Below, in pieces: positions 12,780-25,457 of a stretch of DNA of 64,000 bases. Source of the stretch: an uncultured Chloroflexia bacterium (GTDB lineage Bacteria; Chloroflexota; Limnocylindria; QHBO01); the NCBI GenBank assembly GCA_963716585.1, contig CAVQTN010000002.1, positions 389,730-453,729 of the forward strand, read 5' to 3'. The notes beneath the pieces were generated by a model. It worked only from the letters and a program-made list of their open reading frames with translations, made no database searches and was not told the origin of the DNA. The position numbers and the translations under genes were made by a program. Numbering within the stretch: position 1 is the first letter of the stretch; each line of letters begins with the position of its first letter.

Positions 12780-13552
<773 letters not shown>

Positions 13553-13555
<3 letters not shown>

Positions 13556-14427
13556 TCCGCGATCCAGGTCCCGCGCCGTTGGCGTCGCGTTTCTTCCGCC
13601 CGTCGCCTTCCGTCGTCTCGGTTGGGCCGACCTCGTTCGGCGGCGGCGGACCGGTACTGGCCGCAGGCCCATGCGCCGTCGAGTCGCGGGAGCAGCTGCT
13701 GGCGGTTGCCTCGGCCGCTGCCTCGGTCGGGGCCGGGCTGCTGCGGGGCGGCGCCTTCAAGCCCCGCACCTCGCCATACGCGTTCCAGGGGCTGGGACCG
13801 GAGGGCCTCCGCCTACTGGCCGAGGCGCGCGCCGAGACGGGGCTGCCGGTCGCCACCGAGGTCCTGGCGCCGGAGCAGGTCGAGCTGGTGGCCGAGTACG
13901 CCGACATGCTGCAGGTCGGCGCGCGAAACATGCAGAACTTCTCGTTGCTCGCCGCCGTTGGAGCGGCCCGCAAGCCGGTGCTGCTGAAGCGCGGTCTTGG
14001 CGCAACGCTCGACGAGTGGCTGCTGGCGGCGGAGTACCTGATCGCCACCGGCGCCTCAGGCGTCGTGCTGTGCGAGCGCGGCCTGCGTCATTTCGACCCG
14101 CACACGCGCAACATCCTGGATCTCGCTGGTGCGGTGGCCGTGGGCTCCATGACGCACCTGCCGGTCATCGCCGATCCGTCGCACGCGACCGGCCGCCGCG
14201 ACCTCGTGATTCCGATGGCGCTGGCAGCGCTGGCTGCCGGCCTGAAAGGGGTCATCATCGAGGTCCACCCCGATCCGGACCGCGCGCTCTCCGACGGCCC
14301 CCAATCTCTCGACCTGGACGGTCTGCGCGAGTTGGCGGCGCGCATCGCCGGGTTGGGAATCAGGCTCGCCCAGCCCTCAAGACAGCCGCGCGCGACCACC
14401 GTCGAGGGCTGGGCCGGCTGGCGTTGA
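13553..14427 (+). CDS. 3-deoxy-7-phosphoheptulonate (DAHP) synthase, class I-beta, paralog 1
   Basis: DAHPS/KDO8PS-like motifs are present ([59 protein letters not shown]). The start is uncertain, a possible TTG near 13553. It overlaps the RES toxin gene convergently by about 50 nt. Confidence 0.75.
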
Positions 14428-15913: not shown

Positions 15914-17447
15914 GGTCCGATGCGCCGCATGGCGGCCTCCAGCTCCGCGTCGGACACGTCGTCCACCTCCTCCACCTGGCCGATGCTCATCGGCAGCAGC
16001 CAGCGCTGTCGCCCTTCCGACCGCTTCTTATCGGTCTCCAGCGACGAACGAACGACCGATGCGTCGAAGTCGCGCTGCAGGTTGAGGCCGAGGCCGATGA
16101 GCAGGTGGTCCAGGCGCTCGGGCAGCCCCGCATCGGCACCCCGGGCAACCGCCATGGCCGTGACCGCTCGCAGGCCGAGGGCGACCGCCGCACCGTGGGA
16201 CAGGCGGTAGCGGCTCTCGACCTCCAGCGCGTGACCGAGCGTGTGGCCGAGGTTCAGCTGACGGCGCTCGCCGTCCTCGAACGGGTCGCGCTGCACGATG
16301 TCGAGCTTCACCCGCGCCGCGCGCTCGGTGATCGCGTAGCGCGCCTCCTCGTCGCCGCCCAGCGCCGCATTGCCCCGCTGCTCGAGGAGCTCCCACAGCA
16401 CCGGGTCGCCGATCATCGCCGCCTTGATCGCCTCGGCCAGCCCGTCGCGCAGCTGGTCGCGCGACAGCGTGCGCAGCGCCTGAATGTCCGCCACGACCGC
16501 GACAGGCGGCCAGAAGGCACCGACCGCGTTCTTGGCACCGGTCAGATCGACCGCCACCTTGCCGCCAAGCGCCGCATCGGCCTGTGCCAGCCAGGTCGTC
16601 GGCAGGTTGACCCACGGCGCGCCGCGGGCGAACAGCGCCGCGGCCAGCCCGACCACGTCGCCGGTGGTGCCGCCGCCAACCGCGACCAGTGGATCGCCGC
16701 GCTCGTGGCGCACCTCGCTGAGCCAGTCGAGGATCCGTTCCAGGTTGCGCAGCCGCTTCGAGCGTTCACCGGCGGCGATCTCCAGGCGACGTCCGGGCGG
16801 CGCCAGGTTCGCCACCCGCCGATCGACGATCACCGACGGCGTGCCCTCCAGCTCGGGAAGCGGTGGCGCCACGCCATAGATCACGCGGGCGGTCGCGGGA
16901 CCCATCGGATGGTGGCGCGCGACCTCGGCGTCGAACAGGCGACGGCCGGCCGGCGCGGGCTGCGCCAGGAGATCGCAGATGCGGTCGAGCGCATTCGGCT
17001 CGGATGTGTCGAGGTGCACGTCCGCCGCTCGATAGAACGGCGCTCGCCGTTCGGCCAGGCGCTGCAGGCCTGCCGACGCGTCGTCGCCGAGCATCGGACG
17101 AGGCTCGCTACCGGCGATCCGCTGAGCGAGCATCTCGAGCGGCGCGTCGAGCCACACCACGCGGCCGTAATGCCACAGCCGCCAGCGATTGATCGGATCC
17201 TCGATCGCGCCGCCGCCGGTGGCCACCACGGCGCCCGCCGGCAGATCGGCCACGACCGCGGCTTCGTGCGCGCGGAACGCCGCCTCGCCATCCGTCGCGG
17301 ATCAGCTCGGCCGGCGTGCCGCCCGGTGCGCTGCCGAACAAGCTCATCGGTGTCGGCCAGTGGTCGGCCAAGGCGCGCCGCCAGGTCGCGAGCGAGCGTC
17401 GTCTTGCCGCTGCCGGACAGGCCGACCAGCACGACACCTTCAGCCAT
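15910..17447 (-). CDS. aroB: shikimate kinase fused in frame to 3-dehydroquinate synthase (AroK-AroB); the kinase N-terminal region is interrupted by two 1-nt frame breaks near 17318 and 17296
   Basis: The DHQS portion reads PLVAVGGGTTGDVVGLAAALFARGAPWVNLPTTWLAQADAALGGKVAVD and NLGHTLGHALE. The ORF opens inside the kinase C-terminal half (AVVADLPAGAVVATGGGAIEDP...VVWLDAPLEMLAQRI) with no stop before the DHQS domain. The kinase P-loop half (MAEGVVLVGLSGSGKTTLARDLAARLGRPLADTDELVRQRTG) is in the track ORF 16881-17852. Linking the pieces needs the path frame1, then GTPAELIR, then DGEAAFRAHEAAVVADL. Confidence 0.7.
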
Positions 17448-19388: not shown

Positions 19389-20699
19389 GCCGGCACCGCC
19401 GCCAGTGTTTCGAGATCGTCCCAGAAGGACGGATAGGAGACCGATGCGCTCTCCGCGTCATCAATCCGCACTGTTCCTCCGACACCGGTGAGCGCCGCGA
19501 TCGCGAAGGCGATCGCAATCCGGTGGTCGTGGTCCGTGGCAATGTCGGCGTCGCGCGACGTCCCACGCGACACCCGCCAACCATCCGGTCGCTCCTCAAC
19601 CGTGGCGCCGACGCGCGACAGGCCGGCGACGACCGCCGAGATGCGATCCGTTTCCTTGACCCGCAGCTCGCGCGCGTCGCGCAGCTCGGACTCGCCCTCG
19701 GCGGCGGCCATGGCGACCGCCAGCAACGGCAGCTCGTCGATGAGCGGCCGGGACCTCGTCACCAGCCAGGCTGACCGCCTCGAGCCGTGGCGCGCTGCGC
19801 ACCACGAGATCGCCCACGCGCTCGGGGCCGTCGTCCCGCTCCTCGCACACCACGACGTCGGCGCCCATACGCCGCAGGACGTCCACGTACCTCAGGCGCG
19901 TCCGGTTGAGGCAGACGTCGACCAGCCGCAGCTCCGCGTCCGGGTGAAGCGTCGCGGCGACGACCCAGGCGGCGGCGCTCGACGGGTCGCCGGCAACGTC
20001 CAGGCTGAAGGCTCGGGGGCGTGCCGGGCCGTGGACCGTTGTCACACGCTCGTCGCGGCGGATGCCCACGCCCAGCCAGGCAAGCAGCCGCTCGGTGTGG
20101 TCGCGCGTCGGTCCGGGCAGCTCGATGGTCGTTTCGCCCTCGGCGCCCAGCGCGGCGAGGCAGATCGCCCCGAGCACCTGCGCGCTGGCAATCTCGAGCC
20201 GATGCTGCGTCGCCCGCAGCCCTGCCGGCACGACGCGGATAGGTGCGTGACCGTCGGTCGTCGTCACGTCGGCGCCCATGGCTCGCAGCGGCGCTGCAAT
20301 GCGCTCCATCGGCCGTCGCCGCAGCGAGCCGTCGCCATCGAGCACCGCGGCGATGCCGTGCCCGGCCAGGAGCCCGGCCAACAGCCGCATGGTCGTACCC
20401 GAGTTGCCGCAATCGAGCGGAGCGCCGGTTTCGAGCGTCGCCAGGCAGCGCCGCGTGCTCTCGATGTCGGCGCCGGCGCCGTGGATTCGCACCTGCGACT
20501 CGCCGTCGGCGATGGCCGCAGCCATCAACGCCCGATGCCCGATCGACTTGTCCGACGGCACGCGGATCACCCCGCGCAGCGCCGGAGCCCGGCTCACCAC
20601 GCGCTTCACCGCCAGATACCCGCGGCATGGGTGAACGGCGACGGGAGCACCCGCAATCGTGCCAATCCACTCAGCAGGCGGGTCGTTCCCGCTCGACAT
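19385..20699 (-). CDS. aroA: 3-phosphoshikimate 1-carboxyvinyltransferase (EPSP synthase, class II-like); 1-nt frame break near 19757
   Basis: The N-terminal two-thirds are in ORF 19596-20699 (VPSDKSIGHRALMAAAIADGES, TRDHTERLLAWLGVGIR). The C-terminal third is in ORF 19385-19762 (LIDELPLLAVAMAAAEGESELRDARELRVKETDRISAV). Skipping one G in the cccggccg run gives the expected ...GDEVPPLIDELP... Confidence 0.75.
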
Positions 20700-20787: not shown

Positions 20788-22099
20788 TCACGGGTGCACC
20801 TCCGATGCGTGGCGCCGCTGCACGGAGCGCGAAGCGCGCAGGATCGAGCCGAAGACCGCCGACATCTCCTCGACCGTCATCACGCCGTCGCCGGCGGCCG
20901 CGCGGACCAGCAGCTCGTGCTCGCGCCGCACGTCGTGGCCGTGCGTGCCATTGCCACGGGCCTGCTGGACGGCGAGCGCCGCCGCGGCCCGTTCCTGCAG
21001 CAGCGCCGCGATCCGGTGGTCCAGCGAATCGATCGTCTCGCGCAGCGCCACGACGTCGCCGGATGGCGGCGCCGGGGATGGCATCGGTCGCTCGGGAATG
21101 CGCACGAACTGCAGTCGTCGCAGCTCGTCCATGAGCTCGCCGAACTCCTCGAACGAGAGCGACTGGTCGCCATCGGATTTGGCCTGGGTGGGATGGGGAT
21201 GCACCTCGATGAGCAGGCCATCCGCTCCGACGGCAGCGCCGGCGAGCGCCATCGGTCCGACCAGGGCTCGCTGGCCGGTGCCGTGCGAGGGGTCGACCAT
21301 GATCGGCAGGTGGGTGCGCTGGCGCAGCACCGGCACGGCCGACAGGTCGAGCGTGTTGCGTGTGGCCGTCTCGAACGTGCGGATGCCACGTTCGCAAAGG
21401 ATCACGTTTGGGTTGCCGGAGGACAGGACGTACTCGGCCGCCAGCAGCCACTCCTCGATGGTCGCGCCGAAGCCGCGCTTGAGCAGCACCGGCAGCCGGC
21501 TGTGGCCCACGGCGCGCAGCAGCACGAAGTTGTGCATGTTGCGGCTGCCGACCTGCAGCACATCGACGTAGCGGGCGAAGATCTCGACCTGCGCCGGATC
21601 GGTCACCTCGCTGATGACCGGCAGGCCGGTCTCGTCGCGGGCGTGCGCCAACAGCTCCAGGGCGGCGGAGCCCGAGACCCTGGAAGGCGTACGGCGAGGT
21701 GCGCGGCTTGAAGGCGCCGCCACGCAGCAGGGTCGCGCCCTCGCGACGCGCCGCGCGGGCCGTGCTCAGCAGCTGGTCGGCGGATTCCACCGCGCACGGG
21801 CCGGCGACCACCTGCAGCTCGCCTCCGCCACCGACGTCGACGTCACGCACCCGAACCCGGGTGCGCTCCGGATGATGCTCGATGCTTGCCAGCTTGTACG
21901 GCTGGGTGACCCGGATGACCTGCTCGACGCCGGGGAAGGTTCCCAGGTGCGCCGCACGCTCCACCTCGGCGCCGACCACGCCGATCACCGTCCGCTCCTC
22001 GCCGACGCTGACGAAGGCCTGCAGGTCGTGCGCCTCGATGGCCTCCCGGACTGCCTTCACATCGTCCCGCGTCGCCGTCGGACGCATCACCACGATCAT
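20788..22099 (-). CDS. tri-domain DAHP synthase (N-terminal ACT-like regulatory domain, class I-beta DAHPS core, C-terminal AroQ-type chorismate mutase), paralog 2; 1-nt frame break near 21661
   Basis: The N-terminal part is in ORF 20606-22099 ([43 protein letters not shown]...[12 protein letters not shown]...[15 protein letters not shown]). The continuation is in ORF 20788-21723 ([45 protein letters not shown]...[12 protein letters not shown], then the CM domain [33 protein letters not shown]...). The break is an extra C in gccgccctggag. Confidence 0.75.
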
Positions 22100-22164
22100 C
22101 TGTCAACGCCTCTTGCTGTGCTCGGCGTCTCGTGCCGAATGGGTCCTGGCAGAGGGAAACAAAA

Positions 22165-22200
22165 AACGCACCGGTCCGGGCGGACCGCTGCGTCGGCGGG
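22165..22200 (-). terminator. rho-independent terminator or attenuator hairpin in the leader of the shikimate operon
   Basis: The minus-strand RNA reads GCAGCGGUCCGCCCGGACCGGUGCGUUUUUUGUUUCCC, a stem CGGUCC/GGACCG followed by a U6 tract. It lies about 65 nt upstream of the DAHPS-CM start. A T-run this AT-rich is rare in this sequence. Confidence 0.6.
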
Positions 22201-22246
22201 CACGAGTGCCTCTGCTGGCGGGACTTGCCCGTCTGCCTCGTACCCG

Positions 22247-22276
22247 CTAGGCGTAGTACCAGCACGTGTGGTTCAT
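22247..22276 (-). promoter_or_regulatory. candidate attenuation leader peptide MNHTCWYYA with adjacent Trp-Tyr-Tyr codons
   Basis: The minus-strand reading is ATG AAC CAC ACG TGC TGG TAC TAC GCC TAG. It starts 38 nt after the SDR stop and ends about 45 nt before the terminator hairpin. The aromatic codons sit at the 3' end of the leader, ahead of an aromatic-pathway operon. Confidence 0.45.
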
Positions 22277-22313
22277 GAGTGCGCGGAAGGGTAATCCCGT
22301 TTCCCGACCGATG

Positions 22314-23021
22314 TCAACGCTCGGTCGCCCGACGGATGGCGACGCTCGGCGGCAGGATGGTGCGTCCGCCGTCGGCGTGCCACACCGCGCCGGTGACGTA
22401 GCTCGCCTCCGGCGAGACGAGGAATGCGATGACGTCGGCGATCTCCACGGCGCGCCCCATGCGCCCGAGCGGCACGTCCGGGCGCTCGCCAGGCGGAAAT
22501 GCTGCCGCATCGAAGGCCGTGTCGATCGCCCCGGCGGCCACGACGTTGACGCGCACCTCGGGGGCGCCGATGAGCGCCATCGAGCGAGCGAGGCCCTCCA
22601 GCCCGGCCTTCGACGCCGCGTAGGCAGGTGAACGCGGCGAGCCCTCGGCGGCCCCGGCGATACTGCCGACCAGCACAGCCGCCCCTCGCGATGCGCGCAG
22701 GAGCGGGAGCGCGGCGCGCATCGCCAGGTACGGCGCCCGCAGGTTGACGCGCAGCAGCTCGTCCCACGCCTCGAGGTCGTCCCAGGGCCCCGCCGCCGGC
22801 AGTCCTGCCGAGCAGACCAGGGCGTCGAGCGTCCCGTCGAGCTGCTCGAGGGCGCCAGCCAGCACCGCCTGGTCGCCCGCGTCGCCGACCATGTCCGCGT
22901 CCAGCCCGGGCTGCAGGTCGATTCCCAGCACGCGCCAGGCATCGCCGCGCAGACGCTCGGCGACCGCCTGGCCGATCCCGGAGGCGGAGCCGGTGACGAG
23001 CGCGCTGCGTGGTTGTTTCAT
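22314..23021 (-). CDS. SDR-family short-chain dehydrogenase/reductase
   Basis: The start is the ATG at 23021 (MKQPRSALVTGSASGIGQAVA), a TGxxxGxG Rossmann motif. The YxxxK context is AYAASKAGLEGL. The overlapping 594-aa track ORF is spurious. Confidence 0.8.
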   Translation of the reverse strand: MKQPRSALVTGSASGIGQAVAERLRGDAWRVLGIDLQPGLDADMVGDAGDQAVLAGALEQLDGTLDALVCSAGLPAAGPWDDLEAWDELLRVNLRAPYLAMRAALPLLRASRGAAVLVGSIAGAAEGSPRSPAYAASKAGLEGLARSMALIGAPEVRVNVVAAGAIDTAFDAAAFPPGERPDVPLGRMGRAVEIADVIAFLVSPEASYVTGAVWHADGGRTILPPSVAIRRATER

Positions 23022-23088: not shown

Positions 23089-24954
23089 GTGCGACACTGG
23101 CGCCGAGGTACCTTCACGATCCTGGATCACCGGCTCATCAGCGCGTTGAGCGGCACGGCCCTCCTGCTCGCCGCCTGTTCGGCCACCCCGATTTCCACCC
23201 CTCCTGCGGCCACCCCGAGCATGACGGCCACTCCCAGCCCGCCGCTCAGTGCGACGCCGGTCCCGACCGCCACGCCCGACCCGGTCGAGCAGCTGCTGGC
23301 CGGCATGACGGTCGACGAGCGCATCGGGCAGCTGCTGATGCCGTACGCCTACGGATCGTCGGCCACCAGGGTCACGACCGCACAGGCGGCCGCCAATCGC
23401 CAGATCTACGGCGTCGACACGCCCGCACAGCTCGTGACGCGCGACCACCTCGGGGGCATGATCCTGCTGCCGCGCAATACGCTCCATCCGACGCTCTCCG
23501 AGCTGCCGACCGACAACACGACCGACCCGGCCGCCGTCCCCGGCCTGGTGGACGGCCTGCAGCAGGCGGCGCAGGCCGACAGCGGCGTGCCGCTGCTGAT
23601 CGCCACCGACCAGGAGGAAGGGATCGTCACCCGGATCGGTGCTCCGCTGGCGATGTTCCCCGGCGCAATGCCACTCGGAGCGGCGGGGTCGGCCGAGTTG
23701 GCGCGCAACGTGGCCGCCGCGACCGGCCGCGAGCTGGCCGCCCTCGGTATCAACCTCGACCTCGCGCCGGACAGTGACGTCAATGTCGAACCGCGCAATC
23801 CGGTCATCGGGCTGCGGTCGTTCGGCGACGAACCGAGCCTGGTCTCCCGGCTGGCCGCGGCGCAGGTCGCCGGCTACCAGCAAGACGCCGCGATCGGTGC
23901 GGCCGCCAAGCACTTCCCGGGTCACGGCGACACCACGGTCGACAGCCACACCGGGCTGCCAGTCATCGACCACGACCGCGCGACGCTCGATCGGGTGGAC
24001 CTGCCGCCGTTCGCGGCGGCCATCGGCGCCGGGGTGGACGTCGTGATGGCCGGCCACCTCCTCGTTCCGGCCCTCGACCCGGACGAGCCCGCAACCCTCT
24101 CGTCACGGATCCTGACCAACCTGCTGCGTGGCGATCTCGGCTTCGACGGCGTGGCCATGACCGACTCACTGTGGATGCAGGGCATCCGCTCCCGCGTCAA
24201 CAGCGATGCGGAAGCTGCCCTCCGCGCGCTGCAGGCCGGTGCCGACATCCTGCTCATGCCGCCCGACCCTGCCGGGGTCATCGATGCCCTCGGCGCGGCG
24301 GTGCGCGACGGCACGCTCAGCCAGACGCGGGTTGACGCATCCGTGCGGCGCGTCCTGCGACTGAAGCAGCGCCTGGGCCTGCTGCAGCCAGGCTGGCACC
24401 CCGCGGCGCGGGTCCCCGATGTGCAGACGCTCGCCGCCGATCGCGCGCTGGCCCTCGACGCCGCGACGCAGGCCGTCACGCTGACCAGCTGCACCGCGGC
24501 CCTGCCGCTCAGCAGCCGAAGCAGCCTGGTGGTCGGTCTCGACGGACCGGCGACCACACTCGCCGCCGGCCTGCCAAACGCCCACCCGCTGGCCGTGGCC
24601 TTCAACCCGACGGCAGCGCAGCGACAGGCTGCTGTAGCGGCCGCCGCGACGGCCGGCAGCATCGTGGCGCTGACCTACGACGCGGACCAGTCGGCGGCGC
24701 AGCAGGCCCTGCTCCGGGACCTGGCCGCCAGTGGCCGGCCGCTGATTGTCGTGTCGATCGATCTGCCGTATGACCTGGCCGTGCCGGTTGCCGCCGACGC
24801 GCGCCTGGCGACGTACGGGGCCGGAGCCGTGTCGATGGCCGGCCTGGCGCGGGCACTGACTTCCGGCAGCTTCAGCGGCCGGCTGCCGGTCGCCGTTCCC
24901 GGCCCCGCTGGTCGCGCGCTCGCGTTCGGCGACGGACTCGACCGCTGCCGCTGA
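23089..24954 (+). CDS. glycoside hydrolase family 3 lipoprotein (beta-N-acetylhexosaminidase / beta-glucosidase-like)
   Basis: 621 aa. The lipobox is LLLAAC, followed by a Ser/Thr/Pro linker. GH3 N-domain motifs are present (GGMILLPRN, KHFPGHGDTTVDSHTGLPVIDHD, VMAGHLLVPALD, GFDGVAMTDSL). Confidence 0.8.
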   Translation: MRHWRRGTFTILDHRLISALSGTALLLAACSATPISTPPAATPSMTATPSPPLSATPVPTATPDPVEQLLAGMTVDERIGQLLMPYAYGSSATRVTTAQAAANRQIYGVDTPAQLVTRDHLGGMILLPRNTLHPTLSELPTDNTTDPAAVPGLVDGLQQAAQADSGVPLLIATDQEEGIVTRIGAPLAMFPGAMPLGAAGSAELARNVAAATGRELAALGINLDLAPDSDVNVEPRNPVIGLRSFGDEPSLVSRLAAAQVAGYQQDAAIGAAAKHFPGHGDTTVDSHTGLPVIDHDRATLDRVDLPPFAAAIGAGVDVVMAGHLLVPALDPDEPATLSSRILTNLLRGDLGFDGVAMTDSLWMQGIRSRVNSDAEAALRALQAGADILLMPPDPAGVIDALGAAVRDGTLSQTRVDASVRRVLRLKQRLGLLQPGWHPAARVPDVQTLAADRALALDAATQAVTLTSCTAALPLSSRSSLVVGLDGPATTLAAGLPNAHPLAVAFNPTAAQRQAAVAAAATAGSIVALTYDADQSAAQQALLRDLAASGRPLIVVSIDLPYDLAVPVAADARLATYGAGAVSMAGLARALTSGSFSGRLPVAVPGPAGRALAFGDGLDRCR

Positions 24955-25100
24955 ACTGGGGGCTATCGGTCCCGGAAGATCCATGCTAGACTGCCGTGAC
25001 ATGCTCCCTTGCGGGAGCGCAGATAACGCGGCGCACGATCACTCCTCTCACGGTTTTCGGCGAGAAGGTCGCTGGAGCCGCACGAGAAGGAGTTTCTTTT

Positions 25101-25457
25101 TTGTACCAATCAACCTACACCGATAAGACGCTGGTCTGCGCCGACTGCAACCAGGAGTTCGTCTTCACCGGCAGCGAGCAGCAGTTCTTCGCTGATCGCC
25201 AGTTCAGCGAGCCGCGTCGCTGCCCGGCCTGCCGCGCAATCCGCAAGGCCTCCCGCGGCGACAACGGCGGGAGCAGCTACGGCAATGGCGGCGGCTATTC
25301 GAGCGGTGGTTACTCGAGCGGCGGCGGCTACGACCGTGGCCCGCGCGAGATGCACAGCGCGACGTGCGCGAGCTGCGGCCGCGAGGCCCTCGTCCCATTC
25401 CGGCCGACCGGCAGCAAGCCGGTCTACTGCAGCGACTGCTTCAGCCCGCGCCGCTAG
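25101..25457 (+). CDS. small double zinc-ribbon protein with a central Gly/Tyr/Ser-rich linker (putative nucleic-acid-binding)
   Basis: 118 aa from TTG 25101, preceded by GAAGGAG at 25084-25090 and an unusual T-rich spacer. The two ribbons are C-x2-C-x24-C-x2-C (CADC...CPAC) and C-x2-C-x17-C-x2-C (CASC...CSDC), separated by GGSSYGNGGGYSSGGYSSGGGYDRGPR. GC3 is high only from 25101 onward. The GTG at 24996 is rejected as the start. Confidence 0.65.
   Translation: MYQSTYTDKTLVCADCNQEFVFTGSEQQFFADRQFSEPRRCPACRAIRKASRGDNGGSSYGNGGGYSSGGYSSGGGYDRGPREMHSATCASCGREALVPFRPTGSKPVYCSDCFSPRR

Follow-up and report, generated by a model that had tools for sequence, protein, structure and literature searches.

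A conserved aromatic leader ORF, hairpin and terminator upstream of a Limnocylindria shikimate operon: a probable attenuator of non-canonical build

The window analysed here is a 64,000-nt stretch of DNA from an uncultured Chloroflexia bacterium (contig CAVQTN010000002.1, positions 389,730 to 453,729). On its minus strand, immediately upstream of a shikimate-pathway operon that begins with a fused DAHP synthase-chorismate mutase gene (DAHPS-CM), lies a leader with a nine-codon open reading frame (ORF), a hairpin designated P1-P2 and an intrinsic terminator. From sequence comparisons, this leader is probably a ribosome-mediated (leader-peptide) attenuator that senses the charging of aromatic tRNAs, in a non-canonical build. 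Expression of the DAHPS-CM/shikimate operon would be set by the charging of tRNA-Trp and tRNA-Tyr and, in most relatives, of tRNA-Phe as well. In the single sequence, a nine-codon ORF and one hairpin are insufficient for significance, and the terminator scan returned 2 sites versus 1.4 expected; the leader is more than a chance arrangement because it is conserved in 25 other loci. All leader features lie on the minus strand, where they follow one another 5' to 3' as the SDR stop codon, promoter, nine-codon ORF, P1-P2, terminator, Shine-Dalgarno sequence and DAHPS-CM ATG. The 201-nt leader folded better than its shuffles (z = -2.4). The original prediction, made from the letters of the window, had described the ORF, the hairpin and the T-run correctly; its distances were slightly off, the order of the last codons was wrong, and the promoter and P1-P2 had been overlooked.

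The element in the window and its closest counterparts, here called family 1, comprise 26 copies: the window itself, 10 Limnocylindria loci retrieved through the protein and 15 metagenome loci. A protein-based scan of species-representative genomes gave 7 loci with the fused enzyme (L001-L007, 64-74% identity), 7/7 of which carried the leader unit. The promoter-ORF-P1/P2-terminator unit was also present in 3/3 of the closer relatives obtained by exact protein look-up (L201-L203, 80-90% identity). The DNA-pattern scan of metagenomes was loose, and most of its 120 matches were chance occurrences inside GC-rich genes, leaving 15 true elements. Conservation of the peptide and hairpin before orthologous operons, which had been proposed as a check, was therefore found in 10/10 protein-retrieved relatives, which span 64-92% protein identity, as well as in the 15 metagenome loci. 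The next gene after the leader began with MIVVM or MIIVM, identifying it as DAHPS, in all 24 copies with sufficient downstream sequence (24/24). The gene before the leader varied (SDR, membrane protein, integrase fragment), which assigns the terminator to the DAHPS leader rather than to the SDR gene.

The predicted nine-codon ORF MNHTCWYYA was confirmed. Its last three sense codons had been given as Trp-Tyr-Tyr and are in fact Tyr-Tyr-Ala, the Trp-Tyr-Tyr block being codons 6-8. Leader peptides in the relatives were 8-9 residues long and included MTYQWFYG, MTFQWFYG, MSYMWFYV, MNTFFWYYT, MTRYWYFS, MNMHWFYG, MNKFWFYV, MRTSWYYD, MNHAFEFYA, MNAFWFYA and MNLVCWYYV. Across the 26 copies the ORF lengths varied by whole codons only, residues 2-4 were free and the aromatic block was kept at fixed positions, with 3-4 aromatic codons per copy. 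The equivalents of the block were W-F-Y, W-Y-F, W-Y-Y or F-E-F-Y, with Phe/Tyr swaps and synonymous UUU/UUC and UAU/UAC changes, and one small-residue codon plus TAG always followed it. Trp was nearly universal, and most relatives carried Trp, Phe and Tyr together. Whole-codon length changes, a retained aromatic block and synonymous changes together argue that selection acts on the translated codons, and not on the peptide product or on RNA pairing.

Each copy has its own promoter. A perfect TTGACA was present in 26/26 family-1 copies, as was a TAnnnT element at 17-18 nt spacing (26/26). The distance from the end of the -10 element to the leader start codon was 8-13 nt in the 26 copies and 11 nt in the window, and no purine-rich Shine-Dalgarno sequence was found between the -10 element and the leader ORF in any of the 26. 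From the promoter spacing we infer the position of the transcription start at the leader. Because the promoter lies 8-13 nt before the ATG and no Shine-Dalgarno sequence intervenes, the mRNA would have a 5' UTR of at most a few nt, and the leader ORF is probably translated in leaderless or near-leaderless fashion.

The terminator stem is ACGCAGCGGUCC / GGACCGGUGCGU (22193-22166) with a GCCC loop, and its core has a predicted energy of -16.4 kcal/mol. It starts 53 nt after the leader stop codon, and 57 nt separate the end of the U-tract from the DAHPS ATG (22099); the corresponding earlier estimates had been about 45 nt downstream for the hairpin and about 65 nt before the operon start. The base of the stem, ACGCAG/CUGCGU, was invariant across relatives, while 4 pairs of the upper stem had both sides changed. 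With 25 family-1 sequences aligned (alignment A1), 93.8% of the cells in the three helices of the leader taken together were paired, versus 30-45% when the partners were slid by 1-3 columns. The T-run had been described as one of few in a GC-rich sequence, and the window-wide count bears this out. At 69.9% GC, the 64 kb contain only four A/T runs of at least 5; stretches with 8 or more of 10 T or A number only two, the leader T-run being one. Canonical U-tract terminators seem to be very rare in the source genome. The other T-rich spot is GAGAAGGAGTTTCTTTTTTGTACC at 25092-25102 (plus strand), 140 nt past a GH3 gene (23089-24954), and has no clear GC-rich hairpin. No conserved promoter-like element was found in the relatives between the terminator and the DAHPS start codon, and the operon would therefore be expressed only by read-through.

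Between the ORF and the terminator lies P1-P2. The last aromatic codon is 5 nt from P1, and the stop codon contributes the first base pair of P1. In alignment A1, P2 showed 3 pairs with compensatory changes (GC/CG/AU, GC/AU and CG/UA). The 13 bp of P1 were paired in 99% of cells yet invariant in sequence, except for U-G to C-G and one change from G-C to G-U, and the 7-nt internal loop RGCAGAG was nearly invariant.

A second homologous family was found before unfused DAHPS genes in other Limnocylindrales and Chloroflexota loci. Its leader peptides follow the form M-x-x-x-F-Y-F-R-C-P-A-stop, with variants such as MTTYFWYPSPA, MKHWFYFRRPA and MTRFYWFTDPA. Family 2 shares the promoter type of family 1 and carries a P1-like helix (GCCCGGCAUGA / UCGUGCCGGGC), an inner hairpin, a linker of 3-6 nt, and a GCAGAGG/CCUCUGC terminator with U6. 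A covariance model built from family 1 (R1) matched family 2 over its full length (E 6e-17 to 0.017); in the window it gave one match only, at 22157-22273. The outer P1 pairs flip from G-C to C-G between the families, in support of P1 forming a helix. Both families share the 3' arm core UCGUGCC, its partner changing from GGUACGA to GGCAUGA. In family 2, P1 begins 3-4 nt past the last aromatic codon, compared with 5 nt in family 1, and its 5' arm takes in the final codons together with the stop codon.

Coordinates of the leader and adjoining features in the window. Positions are those of the window; P1 and P2 are the outer and inner helices of the hairpin.
Feature	Position	Strand	Remarks
SDR gene stop TGA	22316-22314	-	Pfam adh_short; same strand as leader
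-35 hexamer TTGACA (perfect)	22312..22317	-	read directly; overlaps SDR stop codon TGA
-10 hexamer TACCCT (TAnnnT)	22288..22293	-	18 nt after -35
Leader ORF ATG AAC CAC ACG TGC TGG TAC TAC GCC TAG = MNHTCWYYA*	22247..22276	-	ATG 22276, TAG 22249-22247
Regulatory codons UGG UAC UAC (Trp-Tyr-Tyr)	22253..22261	-	codons 6-8, then Ala
Hairpin P1-P2	22196..22247	-	-28.6 kcal/mol; in minimum free energy and centroid folds and in RNAalifold consensus
P1 5' arm	22247-22235	-	first G is the G of the leader stop codon
P2	22233-22217	-	within P1-P2
3'-side internal loop AGCAGAG	22216-22210	-	within P1-P2
P1 3' arm	22209-22196	-	A22207 bulged
Linker from P1 to terminator, 2 nt	22194..22195	-	1-3 nt in all 25 aligned family-1 sequences
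Intrinsic terminator	22157..22193	-	stem 22193-22182 / 22177-22166, loop 22181-22178, then U-tract
U-tract UUUUUUGUUU	22166-22157	-	found by terminator scan
Shine-Dalgarno AAGAGG of DAHPS-CM	22109..22114	-	read directly; 9 nt before ATG 22099
DAHPS-CM gene, first regulated	20788..22099	-	ferredoxin-like N-terminal domain, DAHP synthase core, C-terminal chorismate mutase

The features shared with attenuators of the trp/phe/his type are a leader ORF with end-product codons, the placement of those codons, and a terminator before the first gene without an intervening promoter; an antiterminator helix that excludes the terminator was not found. A route by which translation could reach the terminator is suggested by the geometry of P1, which is the only translation-sensitive structure in the leader. 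The mRNA is single-stranded to about +11 from the P site, in the entry channel of the ribosome. When the A site holds an aromatic codon, the start of P1 falls at about +12 from the first P-site nucleotide, or beyond. Because P1 is then at or beyond the point of mRNA unwinding, a ribosome stalled at an aromatic codon would leave it folded against the mRNA entrance. To get as far as the stop codon, a ribosome has to melt about 10 bp of P1 in family 1 and the entire P1 5' arm in family 2; the opened 3' arm of P1 is then free to adopt a conserved local GGCA/UGCC mini-hairpin.

When the tRNAs are charged, the ribosome would open P1 and leave, the terminator, then preceded by at least 40 nt of free RNA, would form, and transcription would stop at 22157-22166. 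At a hungry aromatic codon, the stalled ribosome together with folded P1 would effectively stand 1-3 nt from the terminator 5' arm. P1 would in this way serve as a tether-shortening device, the lower stem of the terminator would not be completed in the RNA-polymerase exit channel, and read-through into the operon would follow. Almost complete repression of a terminator by ribosomes positioned a few bp upstream has been observed in E. coli (PMC4824070). Such occlusion would account for three features: codons held at a set distance from P1, a very short linker from P1 to the terminator, and no antiterminator. That a P1-anchored ribosome is the actual link to the terminator, a coupling that we infer, is proposed tentatively. 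It is likewise possible, though short of likely, that P1-P2, folded solely during a stall at an aromatic codon, suppresses the terminator through anchoring of the ribosome or through an action on polymerase or a factor.

Several results weigh against the attenuator reading, beginning with the missing antiterminator. In single-sequence folds with a ribosome masked at codons 6, 7, 8 or the stop codon, with or without the terminator 3' arm, the terminator always formed. RNAalifold with the same ribosome masks gave the terminator and no antiterminator in both families. A column-wise scan found no conserved helix of 4 bp or more joining the terminator arms to upstream RNA, trivial G-U-rich ones aside, and RNAduplex comparisons of the terminator arms with upstream RNA gave z around 0 to +2 relative to shuffled arms, mostly positive. 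Judged by secondary structure alone, termination is expected whether the ribosome has stalled or no translation takes place. The mutually exclusive antiterminator and terminator of the classic trp/phe logic, on which the original prediction relied, were thus not found by folds, consensus folds, helix scan or duplex tests; what stands of that idea is the conserved aromatic ORF and the terminator, to which a dedicated promoter is now added. In classic attenuators, moreover, termination goes ahead despite an upstream hairpin. Occlusion leaves unexplained why the sequence of P1 and the internal loop is invariant while P2 and the terminator top covary. The strength of that invariance is itself limited, since 15 of the 26 sequences were retrieved by a pattern that fixes the ends of P1, and it rests mainly on the 11 unbiased, protein-retrieved sequences, among which it also holds. 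The reading further assumes that a near-leaderless ORF is translated in Chloroflexota.

The invariance of P1 (13 bp) and of the RGCAGAG loop in 25 sequences, next to the covarying P2 and terminator top, is easier to reconcile with recognition by a macromolecule than with a purely structural role. An alternative built on this, which we consider unlikely while giving it some weight, holds that P1-P2 is a sequence-specific RNA that prevents termination, either by a put-like action on polymerase or by binding a protein or ligand, and that the leader ORF gates it. Completion of the ORF would unfold P1 and restore termination, a stall at Trp, Tyr or Phe would keep P1, and the default untranslated state would be ON. 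The 3' arm core UCGUGCC, kept between families while its partner changes, is in keeping with such a role, as are the position of the ORF end, always at or inside the P1 5' arm, the GGCA/UGCC mini-hairpin, which could lock P1 open after passage of the ribosome, and the lack of an antiterminator pairing. Against it, the element is small (52 nt) and has no Rfam match, and the factor or ligand is hypothetical; the invariance comes in part from pattern-biased retrieval, and a default-ON state is unusual for control by a leader peptide.

The formation of the terminator in all modelled states, together with the strong promoter and stable hairpin, would also suit a constitutive attenuator or insulator, or a gene for a small RNA or small peptide. 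Its transcript of roughly 120 nt would perhaps act in trans like Sinorhizobium rnTrpL, and a fixed leak would express the operon, with the aromatic codons playing no part in read-through. Released attenuator RNAs can act in trans (PMC6614838), and this was counted in its favour. We nevertheless give it little chance: sensing is hard to leave out of any account of an aromatic block that precedes the first gene of the aromatic pathway in two diverged families as well as in other phyla, or of the fixed codon-to-P1 spacing, and the peptide is unconserved outside the aromatic block, which makes a functional peptide unlikely.

Translational control, as in the mycobacterial leaderless Cys short ORFs, would mean that the DAHPS Shine-Dalgarno sequence is held in a duplex with the 3' end of the ORF until a stalled ribosome frees it. 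ACGCCU (22254-22249) is indeed complementary to AGGCGU (22111-22106) in the Shine-Dalgarno region, and the pairing reaches 9 bp in L201. Over 24 loci, however, native duplexes between the ORF and the initiation region averaged -11.4 kcal/mol versus -11.5 kcal/mol for cross-locus pairs, with shuffle z about 0, and the conserved terminator would be left unexplained. The pairing is at most a lineage-specific extra, and we regard this explanation as very improbable. The reading raised with the original prediction that the hairpin and T-run merely terminate the SDR gene, which shares the strand and stops 120 nt upstream, with the leader ORF there by chance, deserves next to no credence and is refuted by synteny and comparative data, since the unit is kept before DAHPS without an SDR gene upstream (L001, L002, L004-L006), a conserved promoter separates the SDR stop codon from the ORF, and the ORF is conserved.

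Other mechanisms were considered and rejected. A T-box-like element had earlier been looked for without success, and the Rfam searches agree: a permissive search of 21900-22500 gave 2 chance-level matches (E 0.64 and 2.1), neither of them a T-box, and no stem I with specifier loop or T-box bulge was found there. At the gathering threshold, the sole Rfam match in the whole 64-kb window was a tRNA, and the leader matches no family. The internal-loop motif GCAGAGG, as a mimic of the terminator 5' arm competing for the 3' arm, was perfect only in L185, L197 and L176, with z about 0 elsewhere. A second ORF starting at the GUG of the P1 3' arm (AGAGG-N5-GUG) and running across the terminator had no conserved frame relative to DAHPS, met an in-frame UGA before the terminator in L011, and would have had the wrong regulatory sign. 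Slippery or landing sequences for hungry-codon frameshifting on UUUU, or for gene-60-like bypass over P1, were missing in most members. A sigma-54-like GG-N10-GC in the P1 3' arm has a spacing that suits family 2 only, and a TRAP-like array of (G/U)AG triplets was irregularly spaced.

Some further observations on the hairpin are recorded here. In the family-1 locus L004 (3477-3531), the conserved GUG of the P1 3' arm is AUG, so that a base pair is broken and a start codon kept; this is a single case. Just after the U-tract, CCUCUGC (22149-22155, minus strand) is perfectly complementary to the GCAGAGG of the internal loop (22209-22215). L201, L203 and L176 repeat this post-terminator motif, L202 has it as CUCUGC, and the sequence CCUCUGC forms the terminator 3' arm in family 2 and in L185/L197. 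A CCUCUGC/GCAGAGG pairing after the terminator could act solely in read-through transcripts.

The regulated operon was examined by comparison with relatives, the nearest named of which are metagenome-assembled genomes of Candidatus Limnocylindria, Chloroflexota. Downstream of DAHPS-CM are aroA, aroC, aroE, aroK-aroB and aroQ, reaching 15497 (Pfam; gene tables of L201-L203). The gene order was the same in the relatives as far as their loci reach, with aroA and aroC in L201-L203 and aroE in L201 and L203. The DAHPS-CM reading frame switches at 21668-21699, as mapped by tblastn, owing to one extra G in a GGG run. With this G removed, the protein aligned end to end, at 92% identity, with intact database proteins carrying PF18152, PF00793 and PF01817. 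Frame switches relative to intact orthologues were likewise seen on the minus strand in aroA (19746-19786) and aroK (about 16880-17250), while aroC is intact. These switches in DAHPS-CM, aroA and aroK look like homopolymer indel errors of assembly, or else like a decaying operon. The window also holds a second DAHP synthase paralogue at about 13365-14427 (plus strand), which starts MIVVLASPS, shares 57% identity with the operon copy and, like it, is apparently frameshifted. No leader element was found upstream of it, and the covariance model finds one copy in the whole window.

Longer, classical-looking aromatic leaders were observed before DAHPS or CM-DAHPS genes in Roseiflexaceae (LYFWFWYF), Smithella (GFYGYWFYTYF) and Verrucomicrobiia. 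The examples are VRVRGSSLYFWFWYFASPQGDWLLRVE in Roseiflexaceae, MDRKLNANIGFYGYWFYTYF... in Smithella and ..SYFYFPT.. in Verrucomicrobiia. Long aromatic leaders with terminators lie upstream of DAHPS at L018 2105-2232, where the genes that follow are an aroH-type chorismate mutase and DAHPS, at about 200 nt upstream of the match in L043 and L056, and at L076 3741-3854. Control of DAHPS by aromatic leaders seems to be widespread and under-described.

A mixed aromatic leader before a DAHP synthase gene is not new in principle. The earlier description of such an arrangement as rarely documented has to be tempered in view of aroR-aroF of C. glutamicum and of the aromatic leaders in Roseiflexaceae, Smithella and Verrucomicrobiia. 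Novelty lies in the phylum, in a minimal near-leaderless ORF in which all three aromatics usually occur, and in an architecture without an antiterminator. A full-text literature search found no paper on this element in Chloroflexota, a negative result of limited reach. If the attenuator reading is right, Limnocylindria, an uncultured class of Chloroflexota that is abundant in soil and freshwater, would have in this leader a first regulatory RNA of aromatic amino-acid synthesis, and control of DAHP synthase by mixed aromatic leader peptides would be spread over several phyla. The element is compact, at about 120 nt with a near-leaderless ORF of 8-9 codons, and would integrate Trp, Phe and Tyr in one peptide in most relatives. 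The absence of an antiterminator, together with an invariant, translation-sensitive hairpin abutting the terminator, raises a testable question, namely whether a stalled ribosome or a folded RNA suppresses termination without competing pairs. Suppression by P1-P2 without an antiterminator would, if true, be a new coupling mechanism for ribosome-mediated attenuation, driven by a minimal leaderless ORF that reads three aromatics, and the leader, if portable, could serve as a small sensor of aromatic amino acids.

Among known systems, pyrBI/pyrE and other terminators close to a stop codon show that the proximity of a ribosome blocks termination without an antiterminator (PMC4824070), and the same logic may apply to the Chloroflexota leader. 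In pyrBI/pyrE the ORF runs to or over the terminator, whereas the Chloroflexota ORF, which neither overlaps the terminator hairpin nor comes within a few nt of it, ends 53 nt before and would be brought close only through the folding of P1. The signals differ as well, being UTP-dependent pausing of polymerase in pyrBI/pyrE and charged tRNA, as proposed, in the Chloroflexota leader.

In the mycobacterial leaderless polycysteine short ORFs, the ORF is the first cistron, its codons sense one amino acid, and control is translational through masking of the Shine-Dalgarno sequence (bioRxiv 10.1101/834739). The Chloroflexota leader resembles them in having a short, leaderless first-cistron ORF with regulatory codons. 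They use no terminator, whereas it has a canonical and conserved one, and its pairing between ORF and Shine-Dalgarno sequence is unconserved; its regulatory codons were not found paired with the downstream Shine-Dalgarno sequence, native duplexes being equal to the cross-locus controls. The put RNA of HK022 is a phage-borne, cis-acting antiterminator RNA with two stem-loops that is not gated by translation. It resembles only the alternative in which P1-P2 itself prevents termination, as a folded, sequence-specific RNA near a terminator that suppresses it without pairing.

The trp and pheA attenuators of E. coli (the class of Trp_leader, RF00513) share with the Chloroflexota leader a peptide with end-product codons, a terminator before the first gene and, as proposed here, folding decided by the position of the ribosome. 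They consist of four segments, with a 2:3 antiterminator that overlaps the terminator and with the codons inside segment 1. In the Chloroflexota leader, by comparison, no antiterminator was found, the codons lie 5 nt upstream of the hairpin and the ORF is near-leaderless.

The closest published analogue is aroR-aroF of C. glutamicum, in which aroR (Phe-Tyr-Phe) precedes the DAHP synthase gene aroF and stalling of the ribosome under Phe limitation raises read-through (PMC4046766, PMC11802643). In both systems a short mixed-aromatic leader ORF stands before a DAHP synthase gene, the likeness being drawn from published function only. The leader aroR belongs to Actinomycetota and has no Trp codon, whereas in the Chloroflexota leader Trp is nearly universal and most copies carry all three aromatics within 8-9 residues.

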